A DNA stretch of 16,121 nt, taken from NCBI GenBank assembly GCA_027050205.1, contig JALUCS010000039.1, positions 1-16,121 on the forward strand. The letters are read 5' to 3'. The stretch is from a candidate division WOR-3 bacterium (lineage in GTDB: Bacteria; Hydrothermota; Hydrothermia; LBFQ01). The notes beneath the pieces are model-generated. The model did not search any database. It was not told where the DNA came from and saw only the letters and a list, made by a program, of their open reading frames with translations. Both the position numbers and the translations under genes were made by a program. How positions within the stretch are numbered: the stretch's first letter is position 1; each line of letters begins with the position of its first letter. This document shows, one piece after another, positions 2,038 to 16,121 of the stretch.

Positions 2038-3305
2038 CCCTTTCCCTCATCGGGGGAGGGTTGGCCGCCCTCATAACCGTTGCCCTCCTCTACCTTGGTC
2101 CCGTAAAGGGCCTTGGGGTGGTTTCCTTCCTCGTCGTAGCCGCCCTCACCCTCCTCCTACCCTTCCACGCGTACCTCCTCCTCGTCTCCCTGAAACCGGC
2201 CATAGACTCCCTCTACCATCTCCGCTTCGGCTTCCTGAAACTGACGCAACTCTTCTCCGTCTACTCCATAGTCATATGGGCCACCATCCTGTTCCTCCGC
2301 CGCTCCGTAAGGGGGCCAACGACGTATATGGACGTTCTCCACCTCCTCCTGCTCCTCCCCGTCCCCTTCATCCTCCTCTTCTCTCCCAACATCGGGGGCA
2401 TAGACCTCGCCTTGAGGATACTCTCCGGGTGGGGGTTCTACTTCGTCGTCAGGGATACGGACCTCAAGGACGCCCGGTGGATAGAGTGGGCCTTCCTCCT
2501 ATCCGTCCTCTTCCCCGCCATCGCTGGCACCATGGCCGTCCTCGGACACCTGCCGAACGGCTTTCAGGAGGGGGCATTTGAGAGGCTGAAGGGCCCCTAC
2601 CACGACGCCACGGCCTTCGGCTTTGAGCTTATCCCCGGCTTCCTAATTCTCCTCCACCGACTGGGTAAGAGGTTCAACCCCCTTGAGTTTGCCTTTATGC
2701 TGCTTCTCCTCTACCTCCTCTACAGGACCTACACCCGCGCCCTCTGGGTCTCTGTCTTCCTGTCCGTTGCCTTGATGCTCTTCCGCAAGGGTAAGGGGAG
2801 TAAGGTCGCCCCCGGTCTCATCTTCGGCATAATCGTAGTGGGCCTTCTCCTCTTCTATCCGGAGATATCGGCCCGGTTCTCCCAGCACGGGGTGGGGACG
2901 GACCCCGACTCCTTCAACGGCCGTATGCTCATATGGAAGGAGGGTTTCCACCGCTTCTTCTCCCTCAACCCCCTCGCCACCTTCTTCGGCTTGATAACTA
3001 CGGGGAAGCCCATGGGCCTCTACCTCCACAACACCTACCTTACCTTCCTGATTGATACGGGGCTGTTCGGCTTCGCCATCTTCGCCCTCTGGCTGTGGGG
3101 GGTGATAAGGTTCGCCCTCTCCTACCGGGGGAAGTACTCCGTCCTCCTAAGGACCTCCCTGATCTTCGTCCTCGTAAGCGGTCTAACGAGCGGCGGCATC
3201 CTATACCCCAACTTCCAGTGGTTCTTCCTAACCGTCCTCGGCCTGGCTATGAACGACTACCGCTCCCTTCACTTCGGGAAGACCACCTCCAGCTCCAGGG
3301 TCTGA
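2025..3305 (+). CDS. O-antigen ligase/polymerase (Wzy_C/WaaL) family membrane protein
   Basis: Many hydrophobic segments; motifs RLKGPY, TYTRALW, SFNGRMLIW and HNTYL..LIDTGLFG are typical of this family. Confidence 0.82.
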   Translation: METLALSLIGGGLAALITVALLYLGPVKGLGVVSFLVVAALTLLLPFHAYLLLVSLKPAIDSLYHLRFGFLKLTQLFSVYSIVIWATILFLRRSVRGPTTYMDVLHLLLLLPVPFILLFSPNIGGIDLALRILSGWGFYFVVRDTDLKDARWIEWAFLLSVLFPAIAGTMAVLGHLPNGFQEGAFERLKGPYHDATAFGFELIPGFLILLHRLGKRFNPLEFAFMLLLLYLLYRTYTRALWVSVFLSVALMLFRKGKGSKVAPGLIFGIIVVGLLLFYPEISARFSQHGVGTDPDSFNGRMLIWKEGFHRFFSLNPLATFFGLITTGKPMGLYLHNTYLTFLIDTGLFGFAIFALWLWGVIRFALSYRGKYSVLLRTSLIFVLVSGLTSGGILYPNFQWFFLTVLGLAMNDYRSLHFGKTTSSSRV

Positions 3306-4960
3306 CCTCCCCTCTTCACCGTCACCACCGTCCTGTCGCCGGGTCTGTACCTCATCAGGGCGTCTATGTAGTCGTAGATGTTGCTTATGGGCTTGCCACC
3401 GATGGAGACTATGACGTCCCCGGCCATTATCCCGGCCATCTCCGCCGGCCTTCCGGGTACCACGCCGTCCACCTTGACGCCCTTTATCCTGCTGGCGTAG
3501 GCGGGTATTATGCCCAGCTTCACCTTGAGCTTACCTACCCTCCCGCCCCTCGGGGCCTCCTCCTTCACCTTCACGTACTCCAGCTTCGGGAGGGCCATCA
3601 GGCTGTCCAACACTTCGTCCGTTATCCTGACTATGGCTGCTATGCCGGGGTAGTTTATCTTATCCGGCGTATCGGAGGGTTTGTGGTAGTCCTCGTGGGC
3701 CCCGGTGAAGAAGTGCGCCACGGGTACCCCCTTCAGGTAGAAGGACGTGTGGTCGCTGGGTCCCACCGCACCGGCCCCGAGGTTCAGTTTGTAGCCGTAG
3801 TGGGCGACCACATGGGCTATGAGGCTGTCCAACCCCTTGCCGCTGTAGGCACCGAGGACGGAGAAGGTGGAGTCCCTCATCCTCCCCACCATATCGTAGT
3901 TGAGGTAGGCGATGGCGCTGTCAAGGGGCAGGAGGGGGTGCTGCGTGAAGTACTTGGAGCCGAGCAAACCTATCTCCTCACCGCTCCAGAACATGAAGGC
4001 GAGGGTCCTCTTCGGCCTCTCCTTCGCCCAGGTCCGGGCCAGCTCAAGGACGGCGGCCACACCGGAGGCGTTGTCGTCCGCCCCGTGATGTACGGCGTGG
4101 GTGTCGGGACGGAGGGAACCGCTCCCCGGCCCCCCCCATCCGAGGTGGTCGTAGTGGGCGCCCAGGCCTATCCACCTCCCACTCTCGCCGGGGAGGACGG
4201 CTATGACGTTGGCGGTCTTCACGTACTTCTTGCGGAGCTTCACGCCCACAGATACCGTCTTACCCGTCCGGAAGCCCACCTTCTCCCCCCTGACCATCCG
4301 GGCGTACAGGCTGTCAAGGGAGGTGCCGAGGATGTCCCTGGCGACGTTCCTCTTCACCATAACGGCCACGATGCCGGAGTTCTGGAGGTCCCTCGCCCGG
4401 AGGGGGCGGAGTTCGTCCTCGTGATCCGGGGGATTGACCAAGATAACCGCCGCCGCACCCTTCTCCCGCGCTATCCGGAGCTTTACGGGTATCGGGGCGA
4501 AACGGTCGTACTTGCTGCTGTCAGGGTGGGAGTAGCGGAAGAGGACGACGACCTTACCCTTCACGTCCAAACCCTCGTACTCGTCGTAGGTGCTGTCGGA
4601 TATACCCCAACCTACGAATACGGCCTCCGCCGAGGCGCTGCCGTCGTCCGAAAAGCTCAAAGGCAGGAAGTCCTTACCGAGTTCGTAGGCCTTCCGCCCG
4701 ACCTTTAGGTAGGTCAGGGGCCTCTTGAAGATCAGGAACCTCCTCTCGTATGCCAGCGGCTCAAGGGAGACGAGGGCGTCAAAGGGCTGCACCTTAACGT
4801 TGTAGCCGTAGGACTTGAGCTTCCTGACGATGTATGCCCTCGCCAGCTTCTCCCCCCTGCTGCCCGTAAACCTCCCCTCAAGGCTGTCGGAGGCGAGGAA
4901 ATACACGGTCTCCTTTATGCTGTCTATGGAGGGCGGTAAAACGCCGACTAACAGGAGCAT
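3269..4960 (-). CDS. M28 family aminopeptidase with PA and C-terminal PDZ domains
   Basis: Motifs LASDSLEGR, GAHYDHLG, GADDNASG, GEEIGLLGS, NYDMVGR, SDHTSF, DYHKPSD; PA insert (DVKGKVVV); PDZ (LGIIP...PAEMAGIMAGDVI). Start moved from 5014 to ATG 4960 because TACAAT lies 6 nt upstream and 5014 overlaps the GT2 gene. Confidence 0.9.
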   Translation of the reverse strand: MLLLVGVLPPSIDSIKETVYFLASDSLEGRFTGSRGEKLARAYIVRKLKSYGYNVKVQPFDALVSLEPLAYERRFLIFKRPLTYLKVGRKAYELGKDFLPLSFSDDGSASAEAVFVGWGISDSTYDEYEGLDVKGKVVVLFRYSHPDSSKYDRFAPIPVKLRIAREKGAAAVILVNPPDHEDELRPLRARDLQNSGIVAVMVKRNVARDILGTSLDSLYARMVRGEKVGFRTGKTVSVGVKLRKKYVKTANVIAVLPGESGRWIGLGAHYDHLGWGGPGSGSLRPDTHAVHHGADDNASGVAAVLELARTWAKERPKRTLAFMFWSGEEIGLLGSKYFTQHPLLPLDSAIAYLNYDMVGRMRDSTFSVLGAYSGKGLDSLIAHVVAHYGYKLNLGAGAVGPSDHTSFYLKGVPVAHFFTGAHEDYHKPSDTPDKINYPGIAAIVRITDEVLDSLMALPKLEYVKVKEEAPRGGRVGKLKVKLGIIPAYASRIKGVKVDGVVPGRPAEMAGIMAGDVIVSIGGKPISNIYDYIDALMRYRPGDRTVVTVKRGGQTLELEVVFPK

Positions 4961-4988
4961 CCGAAGATTGTACGGGGGTACGGGGTGG

Positions 4989-5882
4989 CTACTTCCAGTA
5001 GTGGGGGTAACCACTCAAGATGGGCAAGAGAAAGCGGGGGAGGAAACGGTGGTTGTATCCGAGGAGTAGGCCGAAGAGCCGGGCGGCGTTTTCAACTACG
5101 GCGTACGGTATCCACAGCGGATGGTTCTCGGCGAGGTACATCAACTCCTCCAAGAAGAAGCGGAGGGTGTCCCCCCTGCCTCCGTACCTCCTAAGCCAGC
5201 GGTTCTCGGCGTAGAAGACTCCTATAGCGAAGTACCTCCGGAATATACCCCAAGGGGTGAAAGTGTGGGCGTGGATGACGCGGGCCTCGGCGTTGTACAT
5301 CGTCCTGTACCCGGCCAGTATGAGCTTGGCGGCTACGTAGAGGTCCTCGGAGAGTATCACCCTCGGAAATCCCCCCACCTCCAAGAGCTTCTCCTTGAGG
5401 TAGGCGGCGCAGACGTTGGAGTTCGTGAAGGCCCTAAGGCCGTAGCGAGGAAGCATACTCCTGTCCTTCACCTCCGACTTCTCCGGATAGCTGAAGAGCC
5501 GGAAGAATACCTCCGGGGGAGGGGTGCCGGGAGGGGGAACGTGCCGGGCGTAGGCGAGGACGACCTCCCCCTCAACTATGGGCCGTATCAGGGTCTCCAG
5601 GGTGTCCTCCCGCTCCGGTAGGGCGTCCTGGGACATAAAGACCACGATGTCCTCCGAGGCGAGACGGAGACCGAGGTTCCGGGTGAGGCCGTGGTTGAAC
5701 TCCTCCCGCCTTATCCGCAGCAGGCGGTCCGCCCACCTCTCCGCCACCTCCGGCGTAGAGTCATCGGAGGAGGAGTCTATGACGATTATTTCAGTCTCAA
5801 CCGTCTGGCTGCGTAGTGACCGTAGGAGGGCGGGTAGGGTCCTCTCCCCGTTAAGGGTAGGTATCACTACGGACACCCTCAC
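4989..5882 (-). CDS. Family 2 glycosyltransferase (rhamnosyltransferase-like)
   Basis: Motifs VSVVIPTLNG, IDSSSDDST, FNHGLTRN, FMSQDA, SEDL. The GTG start overlaps the trpS stop. Confidence 0.9.
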   Translation of the reverse strand: MRVSVVIPTLNGERTLPALLRSLRSQTVETEIIVIDSSSDDSTPEVAERWADRLLRIRREEFNHGLTRNLGLRLASEDIVVFMSQDALPEREDTLETLIRPIVEGEVVLAYARHVPPPGTPPPEVFFRLFSYPEKSEVKDRSMLPRYGLRAFTNSNVCAAYLKEKLLEVGGFPRVILSEDLYVAAKLILAGYRTMYNAEARVIHAHTFTPWGIFRRYFAIGVFYAENRWLRRYGGRGDTLRFFLEELMYLAENHPLWIPYAVVENAARLFGLLLGYNHRFLPRFLLPILSGYPHYWK

Positions 5883-7060
5883 GGGCGGAATATGGCCTCC
5901 CTTACCTCCTCCATAGTGCGTTCCGCCACCTCCTTAGCCCTCTTGGAGCCTTCTACGATCACCTGTAGGACGTCCTCGTCGCTGTAGCTTTGGGCCTTCT
6001 CCCTTATGGGCGTCAGCCTCTCTATAAGGACCTCCGTCAGCCTCCTCTTACAGGCCACACAACCCAACTCCCCGGCCCGGCAGGCCCTCTCTATCTCGCC
6101 CACTTCCTCCCGGTTGAATACCCTGTGCATATGGAAGATGGGACACACCTCCGGACGGCCGGGGTCGTTCCTTCGCACCTTCATGGGGTCGGTTATGCTG
6201 GACTTGACCTTCTTCTCTATCACCTCCGGGGGGTCGCTAAGGAATATGGCGTTGTTGTAGGACTTAGACATCTTCCTCCCGTCCGTCCCCAGTATCTTTG
6301 GCGTCTCGGTCAGGAGGGGTTCCGGTATAGGGAAGATGGGGGCGTAGGTACGGTTGAAGTCCCTCGCTATCTCACGGGTTAGTTCCAGGTGGGGTAGCTG
6401 GTCCGCCCCGATGGGTACCACCTCCCCCTTGTACAGGAGGATGTCGGCCGCCTGAAGGACGGGATAACCGAGCAGGCCGTAGGACACCTCGGAGGGAATG
6501 GCGGCCTCGTCTAAGGAAACCTCGCCCGTTATCTTCTCAAGGACCTCCTCCTTCGTCCGGTTTATTACGCTGCTCAACATCCTCTCGGCCTTTTCCTCGT
6601 CCTCCTCCCTGACGAACTTCAGGATCTGGGGGAGCTCCTTCTCCACCTCCAACTCCTCAACCTTCAGTTGCATCTTGGTGTAGCCCTTCCTCTTACGCAA
6701 CTCGGCGAGTTTCTCCTTGAAGGTGGGATTCCTAAGGAGTCTCGGCACGGAGACGAGCATAGAGAAAGCCAGGTGCAACTCCGTGTGTTCCGGTACGTAG
6801 GACTGGCGGAAAACCGTAGCCTTTTCGGGATCTATTCCCACGGCCAACCAGTCCCTGACCATACCTAAGACGTTGGAATTTACCTCCCTCGCCTTCGTAG
6901 GGTCGTCCGTCAGGGCGTGCCAGTCGGCTATCTCGTAGTAGCACTCGTACTCGTCCTGGAGCTTCACCCAGTTGGTAAGGACACCGGCCAGATGTCCTAT
7001 GTGCATACGCCCTGTGGGTCGCATACCGGACAGGATGACCTTCTTACGCTTTTCGGCCAT
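5879..7060 (-). CDS. trpS: Tryptophan--tRNA ligase (with internal insertion)
   Basis: Motifs SGMRPTG, HIGH, YPVLQAADIL, GADQLPHLE, KMSKS. Confidence 0.96.
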   Translation of the reverse strand: MAEKRKKVILSGMRPTGRMHIGHLAGVLTNWVKLQDEYECYYEIADWHALTDDPTKAREVNSNVLGMVRDWLAVGIDPEKATVFRQSYVPEHTELHLAFSMLVSVPRLLRNPTFKEKLAELRKRKGYTKMQLKVEELEVEKELPQILKFVREEDEEKAERMLSSVINRTKEEVLEKITGEVSLDEAAIPSEVSYGLLGYPVLQAADILLYKGEVVPIGADQLPHLELTREIARDFNRTYAPIFPIPEPLLTETPKILGTDGRKMSKSYNNAIFLSDPPEVIEKKVKSSITDPMKVRRNDPGRPEVCPIFHMHRVFNREEVGEIERACRAGELGCVACKRRLTEVLIERLTPIREKAQSYSDEDVLQVIVEGSKRAKEVAERTMEEVREAIFRP

Positions 7061-8846: not shown

Positions 8847-9563
8847 TTGTTCGGATTCTTAGATTCCGGCCTTGGAGGTTTGGTATCCCTCCGTGAGTTC
8901 CGAAAGTACTCCGGCGGCGAGGTAATCTATCTCGGCGACCTCAAACACCAGCCCTACGGTGCCAGGCCGAGGAGTGAGATAGTGGCCCTTACGGAGAGGG
9001 CGGTCTCCTTCCTCCTTGACATGGGCGCCGAGGAGATCTTCATCGTTTGCAACACGATGGCCGCCAACGCCCTCGGATCCCTCCGGAGCCGCTTCAACGT
9101 CCCTATATACGGCATAACCGAGTGGGTAAAGTTCTACACGCCTCCGAAGGATAGGAGGATCGTCGTAATCGGCACGAGGGCCACCATAGAGTCCGGGTAC
9201 TACCAGAGGACCCTCAAGGCGGAGGGGATACCCGCCCCGGAGTTGGCATTGCTCATAGAGGAGGGACACTGGGACGACGATGTGGTGAGGGCCTACCTCA
9301 ACTCCCTCCTTCCCGAAGGGAGTTACGTCCTGGTACTCGGATGTACCCACTACCCTGTCCTCATCCCCGTAATAAGGGAGTTGAGGCCGGAGGTTGAGAT
9401 CGTAGACCCCGCCGAGATCCTCTTCAAACACCTCCGCAGGGAGGGAGGGGAGTTCTTCGTCCACGTCTATCTTACGAGGGAGAACCCAAAGTACGAGGAG
9501 TTTTTGGTACGTTTAGGGTACGAGAGGGATGTTTTTTCTCTTAATTTCGTCCCAGATTATTGA
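8847..9563 (+). CDS. murI: Glutamate racemase
   Basis: Motifs DSGLGG, YLGD..HQPYG, catalytic CNT and LGCTHYP. The ORF-track start (8814) lies inside the tRNA, so TTG 8847 is preferred; the start is uncertain. Confidence 0.9.
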   Translation: MFGFLDSGLGGLVSLREFRKYSGGEVIYLGDLKHQPYGARPRSEIVALTERAVSFLLDMGAEEIFIVCNTMAANALGSLRSRFNVPIYGITEWVKFYTPPKDRRIVVIGTRATIESGYYQRTLKAEGIPAPELALLIEEGHWDDDVVRAYLNSLLPEGSYVLVLGCTHYPVLIPVIRELRPEVEIVDPAEILFKHLRREGGEFFVHVYLTRENPKYEEFLVRLGYERDVFSLNFVPDY

Positions 9564-10662
9564 TAGTATCGCAGTTTTTGGGAATAGATGGACATCTACG
9601 GACTACATCCTCAAGTACGCTGGGGTTAAGGTCGGAGACACCCTGACGGACTCCCTCCTTTACACCGTAAAGCGGCGGCTCTGGCAACTCGGCCTCTTCA
9701 GGGGTGTGAGCGTGGAGGACAGCAACGGTGTCCTGAAGATAGAGGTGAAGGAGACGTGGTACATTTACCCCTTCCCCTACGTCAACGTATCCACGACGGA
9801 GTTCAGCCTCGGTCTGGGCGTCCAGCACAGCAACTTCAGGGGCAAGGGGGAACACCTCTTCTTCCTCGCCGCCGCGGGCAGCCGCAAGATCCTAACGGCG
9901 GGTTGGGGTACTCCCACCCACAGGATGGTTGAGAACGTCCTCTCCGTTGAGGGGGGGAAGGAGTCCTACAGGTCCTTCATATACCGAATGCCCATAGACC
10001 GGTACTTCCTCAAGGTGAGGTTCAGGGGCCGCCTGAAGGGTGGGTGGCAACTACGGATGGGCTTTCTGGGGAGCGAGGTTACCTCCGATAGCACCCACCT
10101 ACTATACGGTGGGGACCCCGACCGCTTCCTCTCGTTGGAGGCCCACCTCTACCGGGACGTACGGGACTGGGAATCCTACCCCCGCAGGGGGTACCTGTGG
10201 AGGGTGGGAATGGTATCCTACACGGGAGACTTCGCAGCCTGGGTGTACGGTACGGACTGGGAGGGGTACCGCACCTTCGGCAGGCTGACGGTGGTCCCGT
10301 TCCTCTCCGTATGGAGGGTCTTCGGGGAACTGCCGGTCTATCTCCGGTTGCCCTTCGTAGGGACCTCCGAGGTCGTGAGGGGTAGCTACCCTCCCAACCG
10401 ACTCGTCGGGGCCGAGCGGGACGTAGCCTCCCTTGAGGTCAGGTACCTCCTCTTTGAGGACCTACCCTTCGTCTCCCACCTCGTTGAGGGGGGTCTTGCC
10501 GCCGTACTCTTTTTGGACGCCGGGCGTCTGGACACCCTCCGGGCGGCCGTGGGTGGGACCGGTGGTATGCTCTACACCCCCTTCGGCAGCTTCACCTTCC
10601 TGGTGGGCTACGGTACCGGTGGGTTGAACCTCTTTGCGGGGAGCAGCCAGCGGATATTCTGA
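9529..10662 (+). CDS. Omp85/BamA-TamA family outer-membrane protein (single POTRA + beta-barrel)
   Basis: POTRA-like N-terminus (IAVFGN..T...I...RLWQLGLF..V....IEVKE), HSNFRGKG, DWESYPRRG, VRG motif, FLDAG and C-terminal Phe. Confidence 0.8.
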   Translation: MFFLLISSQIIDSIAVFGNRWTSTDYILKYAGVKVGDTLTDSLLYTVKRRLWQLGLFRGVSVEDSNGVLKIEVKETWYIYPFPYVNVSTTEFSLGLGVQHSNFRGKGEHLFFLAAAGSRKILTAGWGTPTHRMVENVLSVEGGKESYRSFIYRMPIDRYFLKVRFRGRLKGGWQLRMGFLGSEVTSDSTHLLYGGDPDRFLSLEAHLYRDVRDWESYPRRGYLWRVGMVSYTGDFAAWVYGTDWEGYRTFGRLTVVPFLSVWRVFGELPVYLRLPFVGTSEVVRGSYPPNRLVGAERDVASLEVRYLLFEDLPFVSHLVEGGLAAVLFLDAGRLDTLRAAVGGTGGMLYTPFGSFTFLVGYGTGGLNLFAGSSQRIF

Positions 10663-12163: not shown

Positions 12164-12237
12164 CGCCCCAGGAGGGACTCGAACCCCCGACCTACGGCTT
12201 AGGAAGCCGCCGCTCTATCCTGCTGAGCTACTGGGGC
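12164..12237 (-). tRNA. tRNA-Arg (CCT), CCA not encoded
   Basis: Reverse complement folds as GCCCCAG/CTGGGGC acceptor, GCGGC-TTCCTAA-GCCGT anticodon arm and GGGGG-TTCGAGT-CCCTC T arm. It is followed by a T7 run. Confidence 0.96.
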
Positions 12238-12251
12238 GCCTGAAAGGGAAG

Positions 12252-12620
12252 TGGAGGCGGCGGGAATCGAACCCGCGTCCGAACGGGCTACTTGCCCCCG
12301 GGTGTTTTACAGGCTTAGCCCCTTCTTTCCATTTACGTCCCGGCTTGTGGGCATCGGGGCCTCTCCCGTAAAACCGGGACGCCTCCTCTTTGATACCTCC
12401 TAACCCGGAAGAGGAGGAAGACCGGGATAGGAGGCCTGCCCTAAGGGACCCCCCATCGGGCGCCGGGCAGGAAGCCACCCGTGGGAGGCTGGCGGTCATT
12501 ACGCCGCCAGAGCGTAAGAAGCGTTCGCACTTATTTTGTTTTTGGGCTTGGTAACGGGGTTGCCCGACCCCGGCCTGCACCCGGCAGGCTTTCACCCGCC
12601 GTCGAGACCTTTTCGCCCCC
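12252..12620 (-). ncRNA. ssrA: Transfer-messenger RNA (tmRNA)
   Basis: 5' GGGGGCGAAAAGGTCTCGAC and 3' GGGTTCGATTCCCGCCGCCTCCA ending in CCA; G3-U acceptor pair; internal tag frame ending ALAA-stop. Confidence 0.96.
12499..12528 (-). other. tmRNA tag reading frame: ANASYALAA*
   Basis: ATAAGT then GCG AAC GCT TCT TAC GCT CTG GCG GCG TAA (TGA follows); typical resume context and YALAA degron end. Confidence 0.9.
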
Positions 12621-12667: not shown

Positions 12668-13777
12668 TCAGGGTGTCAGTAGGGGGTGCCTGTCCTTCAG
12701 GTAGGACACCACCCTCTCCACCTCGTTCCACACCCCCTTACCCGACCCCGTCGGCTCATCTAAGGCCAAACTCTCCAACTTTACGCCGTACTCCTCTGCC
12801 AACCCCTTCCACTCCTCCGGGACGCCCTCGTCCAACTCCGAATCCGATAGGACGGCCAAGGCCCACGTCCAGGCCTTGACCACGTTCCCGATACGGTATC
12901 CCCCTCCCCCTAATGCCACCCAAGGTAGGTTTAGGGACCGTATGTAGCGGAGGACGTGGAGGTAGGAGTTGAGGGTCAGGTTCCAGTGGGTCAGGGGGTC
13001 TCCGGAGAGGGCGTCGGCTCCGAGCTGCGTGACTACGGCGTCGGGGCGGAACCGCTCAACCGCCGGTGCCACCACCTCGCCAAAGGTGTAGGTATAGACG
13101 TCGTCCCCGGCCCCTGGCGGGAAGGGTACGTTGAGGGTATAGCCGTACCCCCTCCCCTCGCCCATCTCGTACTCGTACCCCGTACCCGGAAAGAGGTAGC
13201 GGCCGCTCTCGTGGGTACTGACGGTGAGAACGCGATCGTCGTAGTAAAAGGCGTACTGCACCCCGTCCCCATGGTGGGCGTCTATGTCAAGGTAGAGGAC
13301 CCTATCGTACCGTTCCAATAGGGTGTAGATGGCCATAACCGGGTCGTTCAGGTAGCAGAAACCGGAGGCCCTGTCGGGCATAGCGTGATGGAGTCCCCCG
13401 GCCATGTTGAAGGCCCTCTCCACCTCACCCTCTGCTACGGCCCTCGCCGCCAGATAGGAGGCCCCGGCCACGAGTCTGGAGTAGTCGTAGATACCGGGAA
13501 AGACCGGATTGTCCCCGTATCCGAGTCCGTACGCCGCCATGTAGTCCCTGTATTCCCCATCGTTGGCCGCCTTCAGGACCTCCAGGTAGTCGGCAGTATG
13601 GAACTTGAGGAGCATCTCCTCCGGTATCACCTCCGGCCTAATCTTCCTCACCTTCCCCATCAGGCCCTTCATCTCCTGCATCCTCTGGGTCAGGAACAGG
13701 CGGTACGTCTTAAAGGGGTGGGTGGGGCCGTAGGAGTACCGCCAGAAGGGGGACGTATCCAGGAAGGCCACCCGCAT
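12668..13777 (-). CDS. acuC: Zn-dependent histone deacetylase-family protein, AcuC-like
   Basis: Motifs YSYGPTHPF, GDNPVF, GGLHHA, SGFCYLND, DIDAHHGDG, HESGRYLFPGTG, GGGGY. Confidence 0.9.
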   Translation of the reverse strand: MRVAFLDTSPFWRYSYGPTHPFKTYRLFLTQRMQEMKGLMGKVRKIRPEVIPEEMLLKFHTADYLEVLKAANDGEYRDYMAAYGLGYGDNPVFPGIYDYSRLVAGASYLAARAVAEGEVERAFNMAGGLHHAMPDRASGFCYLNDPVMAIYTLLERYDRVLYLDIDAHHGDGVQYAFYYDDRVLTVSTHESGRYLFPGTGYEYEMGEGRGYGYTLNVPFPPGAGDDVYTYTFGEVVAPAVERFRPDAVVTQLGADALSGDPLTHWNLTLNSYLHVLRYIRSLNLPWVALGGGGYRIGNVVKAWTWALAVLSDSELDEGVPEEWKGLAEEYGVKLESLALDEPTGSGKGVWNEVERVVSYLKDRHPLLTP

Positions 13778-13885
13778 AAGGTAATTCTAAACTGGGTATC
13801 CCTCTGGAAGGCACCCCTTCAAAATCCGCAAGCGGCATTACGCCGACGGGGTGATACTTTACCCACCGCTTGGTACCGAACAACG

Positions 13886-13973
13886 CACTTTCAAAAACTG
13901 AAAGTTAAACTTTAGGAAATTGATACTTACACTTTAATAAACTGAAAGTAGCATTTTAAGATTCTTGCAATTC
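13886..13973. repeat. Block A: four tandem degenerate 22-bp units
   Basis: cactttcaaaaactgaaagtta / aactttaggaaattgatactta / cactttaataaactgaaagtag / cattttaagattcttgcaattc. Unit 1 contains a perfect ACTTTCA-N5-TGAAAGT inverted repeat. Confidence 0.75.
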
Positions 13974-14163
13974 ATCCTATACCGTCCATTCGGATTTAGG
14001 ATTCCACCGATGGAATGACGATTGCGACGAAGACTCATCAAACGGGACGGGTCCGTACGGCATACCTCCGAACGGCATCGGGAAAGGTCTAATCTTACCG
14101 GGTTCAGATGGGAGACCGACGACCCTCTTAAGGTGGGCATCACTCCGTCCGCAGAATACCCGT

Positions 14164-14254
14164 TCGCACCTTAAAAAACCGTAAATCGTACCTCAAGAAA
14201 ATGACAATCGCACCTCAAAATTATCTCAACTCTGTTGCAAGATTTTGATCCGTC
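14164..14254. repeat. Block C: 22-bp-period degenerate units
   Basis: TCG(C/T)ACCT(T/C)AA starts at 14164, 14186 and 14208, an exact 22-bp period. 14167-14188 matches block A unit 1 at 15/22. Confidence 0.7.
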
Positions 14255-14407
14255 AAATGCCGAAGGTTGAAACCGGGCCTTGTGAGGTGCTATTGGGAAT
14301 CATCAATCCGAGTTCCGACACCTACAGTGCAGGGACGACCCCCTGATGAGGTATCACTGCATCAGCCGAACGCTCCTCCTTCCGTGAAGGCACAGTCCTC
14401 CCAAATA

Positions 14408-14517
14408 CCTCTTCAAAGACCGTAAGTCTGACTTCAGGGAACTGATACCCACGCTTTATGAAACTGCAAGCTTAACTTCAAGATTTTTGCAACCTACTTT
14501 GCAGAATTTTAATCCCT
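14408..14517. repeat. Block B: degenerate copy of block A
   Basis: 14408-14495 aligns without gaps to 13886-13973 at about 60/88 by hand count. Confidence 0.75.
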
Positions 14518-14554
14518 ATCTCCAGGGTCGGCCTTGATGCACCATAGGTCGGTC

Positions 14555-15109
14555 CTACCCGGTCTGCAGTTTGGCCTCAACTATCTCTGCTATCACGTGA
14601 AGGAGGAGGCGGTGGACCTCCTGGATCCTTTGGGTGTCCTCCGTGGGTACGGCGAGGACGACGTCCCCCTTCACCTTTCCCCCTCTCCCCGTGAGGTATA
14701 TGACGCCCATTCCCTTCCTCTTGGCCGCCTCCACCGCCCGGTTCACGTTCTCCGACCTCCCCGACGTTGATATGGCCACTAAGACGTCCCCCTCCCCACC
14801 GATGGCCTCCACCTGCCGGGCGAAGACCTCCCCGTATCCGTAATCGTTGGCTAACGCCGTAAGGACGGCGGTGTCTGCTGTCAGGGAGATGGCCGGTAGG
14901 GGGGGCCTGTCCCCCTTCAGCCTACCGACGAGTTCCCCGGCGAAGTGTTGGGCATCCGTGGCGCTACCCCCGTTCCCACACACCAACACCTTCCCCCCCT
15001 TCTTCAGGGCCGAGGCTATCAGGTCGGCCGCCCTCTCCACGTCCCCCTCCATCTCCTCTATGGCCTCAAGGACGGCCTTCAGCTCCCTAAGGGCTTCCCG
15101 AAAGGCCAA
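14555..15109 (-). CDS. gmhA: D-sedoheptulose 7-phosphate isomerase (SIS domain)
   Basis: Motifs CGNGGSATDAQH, ANDYGY..VFARQV, ISTSGRSENV, RIQEVH. TTG start with GGAGG upstream, 1 nt after the yjbQ stop. Confidence 0.93.
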   Translation of the reverse strand: MAFREALRELKAVLEAIEEMEGDVERAADLIASALKKGGKVLVCGNGGSATDAQHFAGELVGRLKGDRPPLPAISLTADTAVLTALANDYGYGEVFARQVEAIGGEGDVLVAISTSGRSENVNRAVEAAKRKGMGVIYLTGRGGKVKGDVVLAVPTEDTQRIQEVHRLLLHVIAEIVEAKLQTG

Positions 15110-15509: not shown

Positions 15510-15968
15510 AGGCCAGAATTTTACCGACGTCGCGCTGACGGGGAGACCGCACCGTTCAGTCACCTTACGCCGGTAGGGGGATGGGCGTATCCGGACTCGG
15601 TGAGGGGTAATTTTGGGTTTAGGAACTTACGTCAGATTTAAAGATAAAACCGACGTTATAATATGCATCGTGTTTATCCCAAAAATTGGGCCAAATTTAC
15701 CAATACGACTAAAAATTGGTATTACTCCAATAGAAGACCGTCCCATCCGTCACTAAGCCGAAAGCTGCATTTTAACCCGAATCTATCCGTTGGTCCTTTA
15801 TTTTAGCTTTTATGCTACCTATCGTATCATTCAATTAACTAAACCTTCAAAAATTTTGCATAATATGCGGTTTTATTTTTGCTTACAGCCACAAATTTGA
15901 TAATGAAATGTTGATTAGTGTAAGTTAAAAGAAGTTAAAAGTAATTCCATATTTTATCAAAGATGCAG

Positions 15969-16121
15969 GGTTGTGTTGAATAATTACAAAATTTTATGCT
16001 TTGTCCAAAAAGTGAGGGGGTGGTAGTGGTCGGGGATAGAATAGAGGGATATGAAGGAGAAGAAGGAGAAGAAGAGGGACTGGAAGAAGTACAACGAGCA
16101 GTTGGTAAGGAGGGGAGAAAT
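15969..16121 (+). mobile_element. Left end of an IS5-family (IS903-group-like) insertion sequence
   Basis: GGTTGTGTTGAATAATTA (15969-15986) matches the IS903 terminal IR GGCTTTGTTGAATAAATC (recalled from memory) at 14/18, and a transposase-like ORF start follows. Confidence 0.75.
16051..16121 (+). CDS. IS5-family transposase, N-terminal fragment (runs off window)
   Basis: MKEKKEKKRDWKKYNEQLVRRGE has the W-x2-YN-x2-L-x2-RG N-terminal signature of IS903-group transposases. An in-frame TAG at 16042 fixes the start. Confidence 0.78.
   Translation, partial: MKEKKEKKRDWKKYNEQLVRRGE

Follow-up and report, generated by a model that had tools for sequence, protein, structure and literature searches.

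The gap between the acuC-like and gmhA-like genes of the window (the whole 16,121-nt stretch of DNA that was analyzed) holds three copies of an ordered 88–110-bp module, here called blocks, each built of phased 22-bp units. The module is dispersed through the genome in association with IS1-type ends, block-bearing elements elsewhere in the genome are flanked by 8-bp target duplications, and the phased core of the module is under strong constraint. We propose that the blocks sit inside non-autonomous IS1-type MITEs and likely serve as a docking array that aids their mobilisation, an explanation whose chances as a whole we consider about even. Its mobile-element part is highly probable, and the function of the array as a transposition enhancer is plausible, with chances slightly short of even.

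Blocks and IS1-type ends in the acuC-gmhA gap

The intergenic gap is 777 bp long, and its AT-rich blocks A, B and C start at 13886, 14167 and 14408, with the spacings of 281 and 241 bp reported in a first-pass annotation of the window. The 22-bp period described there was reproduced, the autocorrelation at lag 22 reaching a z of 5.7 over 13780–14550 against 200 dinucleotide shuffles, and 5.0, 5.5 and 4.4 inside blocks A, B and C, respectively. A perfect dyad at 13887–13905 and a 6/7 copy at 13931–13949 are both present in the sequence as described. The lone unit noted at 13814 is also genuine: it scores 21.9 bits by the unit-1 matrix (median of real first units, 23.4), a score equalled or exceeded at 63 of 4.1 million genome positions, and first units like it occur in blocks on contigs C60 and C70. 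The ungapped identity of 60/88 is real for A and C, not for A and B to which it had been assigned; A/B and B/C both match at 48/88, and the maxima among shuffles were 42 (A/B) and 41 (A/C; 2000 shuffles each). The features of the gap and its flanking genes are as follows.

12668..13777, minus strand: acuC-like deacetylase gene, flanking, outside the element (PF00850, E 1e-84)
13814..13833, plus strand: lone first-type 22-bp unit, truncated where an IS1-type end starts (21.9 bits)
13834..13855, plus strand: IS1-type terminal inverted repeat facing block A (22 bits by the end matrix)
13856..13885, plus strand: linker from the end to block A, common to a subfamily of copies (C132, C56 and C24 at 78–91%)
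13886..13973, plus strand: block A, four phased 22-bp units with the perfect dyad at 13887–13905 (block score 99)
13998..14047, plus strand: relic IS1-type end, equivalent to the right end of a ~226-bp family, reversed (end score 20.6)
14115..14160, minus strand: IS1-type right end, its tip 6 bp ahead of block B (end score 22.4)
14167..14254, plus strand: block B, four units, more degenerate (block score 51.7; 21/28 top-conserved columns)
14332..14374, minus strand: degenerate IS1-type right end, a segment of the "homologous spacer" (end score only 7.2)
14408..14517, plus strand: block C, four units and a fifth tail unit (block score 80.7)
14555..15109, minus strand: gmhA-like SIS-domain gene, flanking, outside the element (PF13580, E 4e-33)

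We found no credible gene in the gap, in agreement with the first reading: none of its four short ORFs has a Pfam match, and Rfam gave no match inside the gap up to E 5. The exclusion of a CRISPR array and of a coding repeat likewise held. The spacers between the blocks had been called homologous, which is correct above chance for two ~45-bp segments, 14118–14160 and 14332–14374 (local alignment score 31 versus 18.5 ± 3.0, reached by 3 of 500 shuffles). Elsewhere in the spacers there is no likeness above chance, since the score left after removal of these segments was equalled in 226 of 500 shuffles. Both segments are IS1-type ends. A decayed insertion sequence, which the first-pass annotation had set against its own reading, is therefore present in part, in that the DNA between the blocks bears IS1-type ends.

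The ends in the gap can be traced to elements elsewhere. The 13834 end aligns with the termini of autonomous IS1 copies of the same genome and of congener G002, and the homology of the gap to copies on C56, C84, C83 and C60 begins at this end. The relic end at 13998–14047 is 72–82% identical to sequences on C118, C93, C7, C115, C40 and C110, duplication-flanked elements on C127 and C60 cease to be homologous at or within 3 bp of 14160, and the 14332–14374 end aligns with 14118–14160 and with an end on C114. The ends at 13834, 13998 and 14160 also align with the element ends on C31, on C40 and in G002. No pair among these three has matching flanks that would represent a target duplication; the three blocks are thus assigned to IS1-type MITEs by homology alone, and with four ends and no duplication the gap reads as a decayed mosaic, presumably of several insertions whose duplications were lost. 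Block A, which has the second best score of all 92 blocks in the genome and matches 28/28 top-conserved columns, has its nearest relatives on other contigs at 76–77% identity.

Contigs of a sister strain (runs X2, X3 and X4 from two studies, none of them flagged as the possible source run; about 93–95% identical) keep the acuC-like gene, the end ahead of block A, the block B region and the gmhA-like gene. A contiguous contig from run X3 extends from acuC across the linker at 13856–13885; block A itself is not resolved in these contigs. At block C, the sister contigs join 14363 to 14559 via 27 letters, of which 21 align with the tail of the fifth unit, 20 of them matching; the first four units are absent and the tail is kept. 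Because this tail is retained, it is simpler to assume that the sister strain lost block C, and the joint does not provide a clean empty site. Among congeners the gene neighbours differ, with changed upstream neighbours of the acuC-like gene in four congeners and a changed downstream neighbour of the gmhA-like gene in G004 and G016. Gene order is poorly kept in the genus in general: in all congeners examined, acuC, gmhA and an InsA-like gene (see below) differ on one side in the gene next to them.

Several other features of the window were recorded. A second AT-rich gap (15560–16121, 35% GC) has an IS1-type end at 15718, and sister-strain contigs skip 15590–15682. From a motif, we take the ORF starting near 16052 to resemble the N-terminus of an IS5-type transposase; its 24-aa piece has no Pfam match. 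A tRNA gene (12164–12237) and a tmRNA gene (12249–12620) lie in tandem on the minus strand adjoining the acuC-like gene. The tryptophanyl-tRNA synthetase ORF (5879–7060) has, by eye, an apparent charged insertion of about 70 residues after LLRNPTFKEK, and the ORFs at 3269–5014 (peptidase-like) and 9529–10662 (outer-membrane-like) have very short hydrophobic N-termini.

Genome-wide distribution of the blocks and of IS1-type elements

An iterated 88-bp matrix detected 92 oriented blocks of four to five units each in the assembly of 2.05 Mb, compared with none in reversed DNA. According to a crude gene caller, 91 of the 92 are intergenic, distributed over 71 gaps whose gene orientations mirror those of all long gaps. 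The blocks are spread evenly over the contigs (chi-square p 0.95); contigs of at least 20 kb, 1.42 Mb in all, contain 51 block gaps, roughly one every 28 kb. No ties to gene starts or strand were found. Units resemble the same unit of other blocks (61% identity) more than the other units of their own block (52%), and this position specificity indicates that the block spread as an ordered module. Unit positions 4–5, 10–12 and 17–18 are conserved and the flanks almost unconserved. The first-pass annotation had proposed same-face dyads for a dimeric protein; conservation recurs at fixed unit positions across blocks, and the proposal survives in conditional form.

The distribution bears directly on the other proposal of that annotation, a locus-specific origin-, iteron- or centromere-like array or a set of repeated promoter-plus-small-RNA units, which we now regard as very improbable. 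A period of 22 bp does equal two helical turns, and one block-bearing gap lies about 1 kb from a PF00308 (DnaA-family) match on C93; that match is nevertheless on another contig and near only 1 of the 71 gaps, the blocks are dispersed and evenly spread, the GC-skew test showed no switch at the gap, and block C is dispensable, being absent in the sister strain. As for RNA units, the gap has no sigma-70 promoter, terminator or Rfam match, and the blocks have no tie to gene starts or strand. A structured small RNA was rejected from folding z-scores of −0.5 to +1.3 (6 strands), and so was compensatory pairing, which is not consistent: 3 of 18 dyad pairs exceeded z 2.5, none of them by more than 6 points, and one was strongly negative.

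The autonomous partner of the family is likely at hand. C31:1269–2174 is an autonomous IS1-family element of 906 bp with matching ends and a perfect 8-bp duplication, encoding InsA (zinc ribbon, HTH) and, in the −1 frame behind an A-run, InsB (PF03400). Further InsA or InsB copies lie on C40 (a frameshifted copy), C123 and C61. With the end matrix, 275 IS1-type ends were found above 14 bits, compared with 22 in reversed DNA. Among 191 inward-facing end pairs within 2.5 kb, an 8-bp duplication is perfect in 8 and has one mismatch in 8 more, and lengths of 7, 9 or 10 bp show no such peak; one perfect 9-bp case exists besides the 8-bp set. The duplication-flanked non-autonomous elements number 16 (15 with an 8-bp duplication and the 9-bp case), and 11 of them carry the array at a two-unit score above 20, where the reversed control peaks at 15. 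These represent 10 distinct blocks, two elements being nested, and the interiors otherwise look unrelated by eye. The autonomous C31 element and the remaining 5 of the 16 have no array, so the array is not required for transposition.

IS1-type ends also accompany the blocks in general, being present in 58 of 71 block-bearing gaps versus 66 of the 240 long gaps without a block. Only 32 of the 92 blocks are flanked within 450 bp by inward ends on both sides, and upstream of the 18 blocks without a nearby end the sub-threshold relics of ends score better than in reversed controls (p 5e-5). At 3 of 17 reconstructed empty sites a block is already in or near the target, indicating that some blocks are older than the insertions. 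Flank swapping between copies was not detected (0 cross matches, 1.3 expected, among the 275 ends genome-wide). The best-defined group is a ~226-bp non-coding family of 14 copies. Family members outside the window have the attributes of IS1-type MITEs: matching ends, 8–9-bp duplications, short length, no coding capacity, multiple copies, intergenic location and an autonomous partner. Three further arrangements were seen. First, C87:25896–26758 is an 863-bp element with a perfect duplication, and nested in it is a block-bearing element of 274 bp that has a duplication of its own. Second, on C110 the insertion point of a 227-bp element coincides exactly with the start of another block. Third, copies on C118 near 33700 and on C104 near 48000 have the ends of the ~226-bp family with a different AT-rich interior and no block.

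Gaps with more than one block are co-oriented in 16 of 17 cases, and the blocks in them are not local duplicates. Local tandem duplication was rejected since identity is 0.561 within a gap (23 pairs) versus 0.569 between gaps (643), and only 2 of 37 blocks have their best match in their own gap. Nested or compound elements can explain part of the co-orientation, and the remainder is unexplained. Replichore polarity was not supported: neighbouring gaps concur in 18 of 27 comparisons (p 0.06), and skew proxies were matched in 31/60 and 26/61. IS1 is listed as unbiased in PMC3971601. An end tip lies 0–6 bp ahead of unit 1 in 6 of 92 blocks; at least 3 of the 6 share one junction sequence and are therefore not independent events, and an insertion hot spot at the block start was discarded.

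The two-unit pattern has 46 matches here and none in 6 congeners. Allowing two mismatches gave 1–3 matches each in 12 of 40 other genomes, comparable to the reversed control, and 14 such loci in relatives all score below zero by the block matrix. The exact four-unit pattern (8 matches in this genome) gave no match in genome_contigs and metagenome_contigs, nor did the three-unit pattern (8 matches in this genome) in viral_contigs, in searches whose exact patterns miss diverged arrays and whose collections may lack records very close to this genome. Scanning genome_contigs for InsB confirmed none of 71 candidates, and no GmhA match in the metagenomes exceeded 59% identity. Three of 6 congeners and 1 of 5 sister-genus genomes carry related IS1 transposases; the ~226-bp block-bearing element was found in none of the 6 congeners.

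Constraint on the phased core and candidate binders

The ~226-bp family was retrieved by a left-end profile seeded from 8 block-bearing copies, without use of the block, and 2 of the 16 copies obtained were dropped for their different interior; including them, conservation remains higher in core A/T columns (p 0.0014). The core was defined as the seven unit positions with the top ranks in other blocks. In the 14 copies, core A/T cells changed in 2 of 357 cases versus 141 of 1056 other A/T cells, making the core about twentyfold more constrained, in a count of cells that are not phylogenetically independent. A/T cells in the ends of the family changed more than the core (25/265). Column-wise cross-validation on 12 copies gave a weaker result (13/336 vs 31/360, p 0.012). 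Private changes do not differ significantly in a low-power test (core 2/357 vs 18/1056 other A/T, p 0.19), and hence the whole excess lies in changes shared between copies. On sequence comparison, this points to selection among copies that go on spreading.

An inert origin of the pattern has to be weighed here. The array could be minisatellite cargo, as BrickBuilt (see below) may be, with the apparent constraint arising from A/T mutational bias and unit-to-unit conversion. In the family, A/T columns do change less than G/C columns (0.11–0.12 vs 0.17–0.19), whole units and whole blocks are lost, and several mobile copies lack the array. The twentyfold difference nevertheless persists when the comparison is restricted to A/T columns, and the 61% same-unit versus 52% within-block identity gives no evident sign of local homogenisation. 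We consider this explanation improbable.

A host-level explanation is that the blocks are lineage-specific, chromosome-wide sites selected for a nucleoid or regulatory protein, beside which IS1-type elements insert and which they capture as passengers. The target duplications differ at 12 of 144 positions (8%), and at this rate more than 2 core changes would be expected after insertion, which leans to host-level selection. Core match is equal in blocks without ends (0.855) and with ends (0.861), both sets being matrix-picked, so that the core appears retained where the ends have decayed. The even spread at about one block gap per 28 kb, the 3 of 17 empty sites with a block in or near the target, and the co-orientation of 16 of 17 multi-block gaps without local duplication also agree with host sites. 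Against them, the 46 two-unit matches here face none in 6 congeners, block C was lost in the sister strain, and one family copy has lost exactly one unit. Furthermore, copies exist with the subfamily end and without a full block, the blocks are unrelated to gene starts, gene strand or skew, and private core changes are not significantly depleted. Host sites are accordingly possible though rather unlikely.

Several candidate binders and structural explanations were not supported. First, IHF-site arrays: 15 of 67 blocks reach at least 8 of 9 positions of the IHF consensus, versus 12.3 in shuffles. Only two HU/IHF-family genes were found in the genome (G000); the second, C93:78096–78365, encodes a divergent protein with a basic C-terminal tail and lies about 1.6 kb from a block. 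Second, we take the 5-5-5 dyad to resemble Lrp/AsnC sites. Lrp/AsnC operators were nonetheless discarded because PF01037, found in 6 of 21 genomes searched, was not found in G000 (93.5% complete) or in 11 family members. Third, intrinsic curvature is not indicated, the AA/TT signal peaking at 7.5, 5.5 and 22 rather than at 10.5–11. Fourth, the units have no similarity to IS1 ends of which they might be degenerate copies. Finally, the gene of a stand-alone InsA-like protein, another candidate binder, is also present in genomes without array matches. This 86-aa gene (C61:464–721) has a zinc ribbon and HTH, no InsB and no scored ends. It is divergent from the same neighbour in G000, G002, G004, G006 and G009 at 77–95% identity, lies behind an invariant 19-bp upstream stretch, and looks like a domesticated IS1 repressor.

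Comparison with known elements and meaning of the array

The closest counterpart is BrickBuilt, a MITE found in Porphyromonas gingivalis (PMC4596501), likewise intergenic, species-restricted and non-autonomous, with ends derived from a resident IS. Both have internal tandem repeats with a unit length close to two helical turns (23 nt in BrickBuilt, 22 here), and both ends are kept in few copies (4/19 in BrickBuilt, 32/92 here). BrickBuilt has IS5-type ends, in contrast to the IS1-type ends with 8-bp duplications described here. Unlike in BrickBuilt, the number of units here is fixed at four to five; the units are specific to their position and only about 52% identical to others of their block, and one module occurs in several otherwise unlike element interiors.

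The C31 element and IS1 of Escherichia coli (PMC12428005) share insA/insB, a −1 frameshift at an A-run, a zinc finger plus HTH, imperfect ends and duplications of 8–9 bp. According to the portion of that source available, InsA overproduction suppresses IS1 transposition, a preliminary mini-IS1 is reported to transpose, and host factors such as IHF are cited for transposition; no internal phased array in IS1 is described there. Unlike E. coli IS1, the elements in the window encode nothing, and the autonomous C31 copy is without the array. The Correia/NEMIS MITE of Neisseria carries an internal IHF site proposed to facilitate transposition (PMC2229807, PMC10969869), and the blocks are alike in carrying an internal, here putative, site for a protein. 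Correia/NEMIS has one IHF site, whereas each block has four to five phased dyads, in which the IHF consensus is not enriched over shuffles.

In the docking-array explanation that we prefer, a dimeric DNA-binding protein would dock on 15-bp dyads spaced two turns apart on one helix face, and would help the short elements be mobilised by the resident IS1 transposase. The array would be an aid rather than a requirement, given that the C31 copy and 5 of 16 non-autonomous elements are without it, and constraint would act mainly on copies that spawn further copies. A more specific version, which we put forward only tentatively, is a portable cis-acting enhancer combined with a homing address: a dimeric protein would coat the four or five dyads, boost synapsis of ends ~200 bp apart, and steer block-bearing elements beside existing blocks in the same orientation. 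Such a role would explain the common module in unlike interiors, the frozen core in spreading lineages and the 16/17 co-orientation.

MITEs bearing minisatellites are already known, and in the available text of the comparison papers the function of their internal repeats is not shown; in the literature searched, we came across no account of arrays of this kind in IS1-type MITEs. If the array is inert, the blocks are an ordinary decayed repeat family. The family shows that phased 22-bp dyad arrays, which in one window resemble origin or centromere sites, can spread by mobile DNA in one lineage, and the strong constraint on the core makes the old suggestion that the interiors of bacterial MITEs aid their own mobility directly testable.
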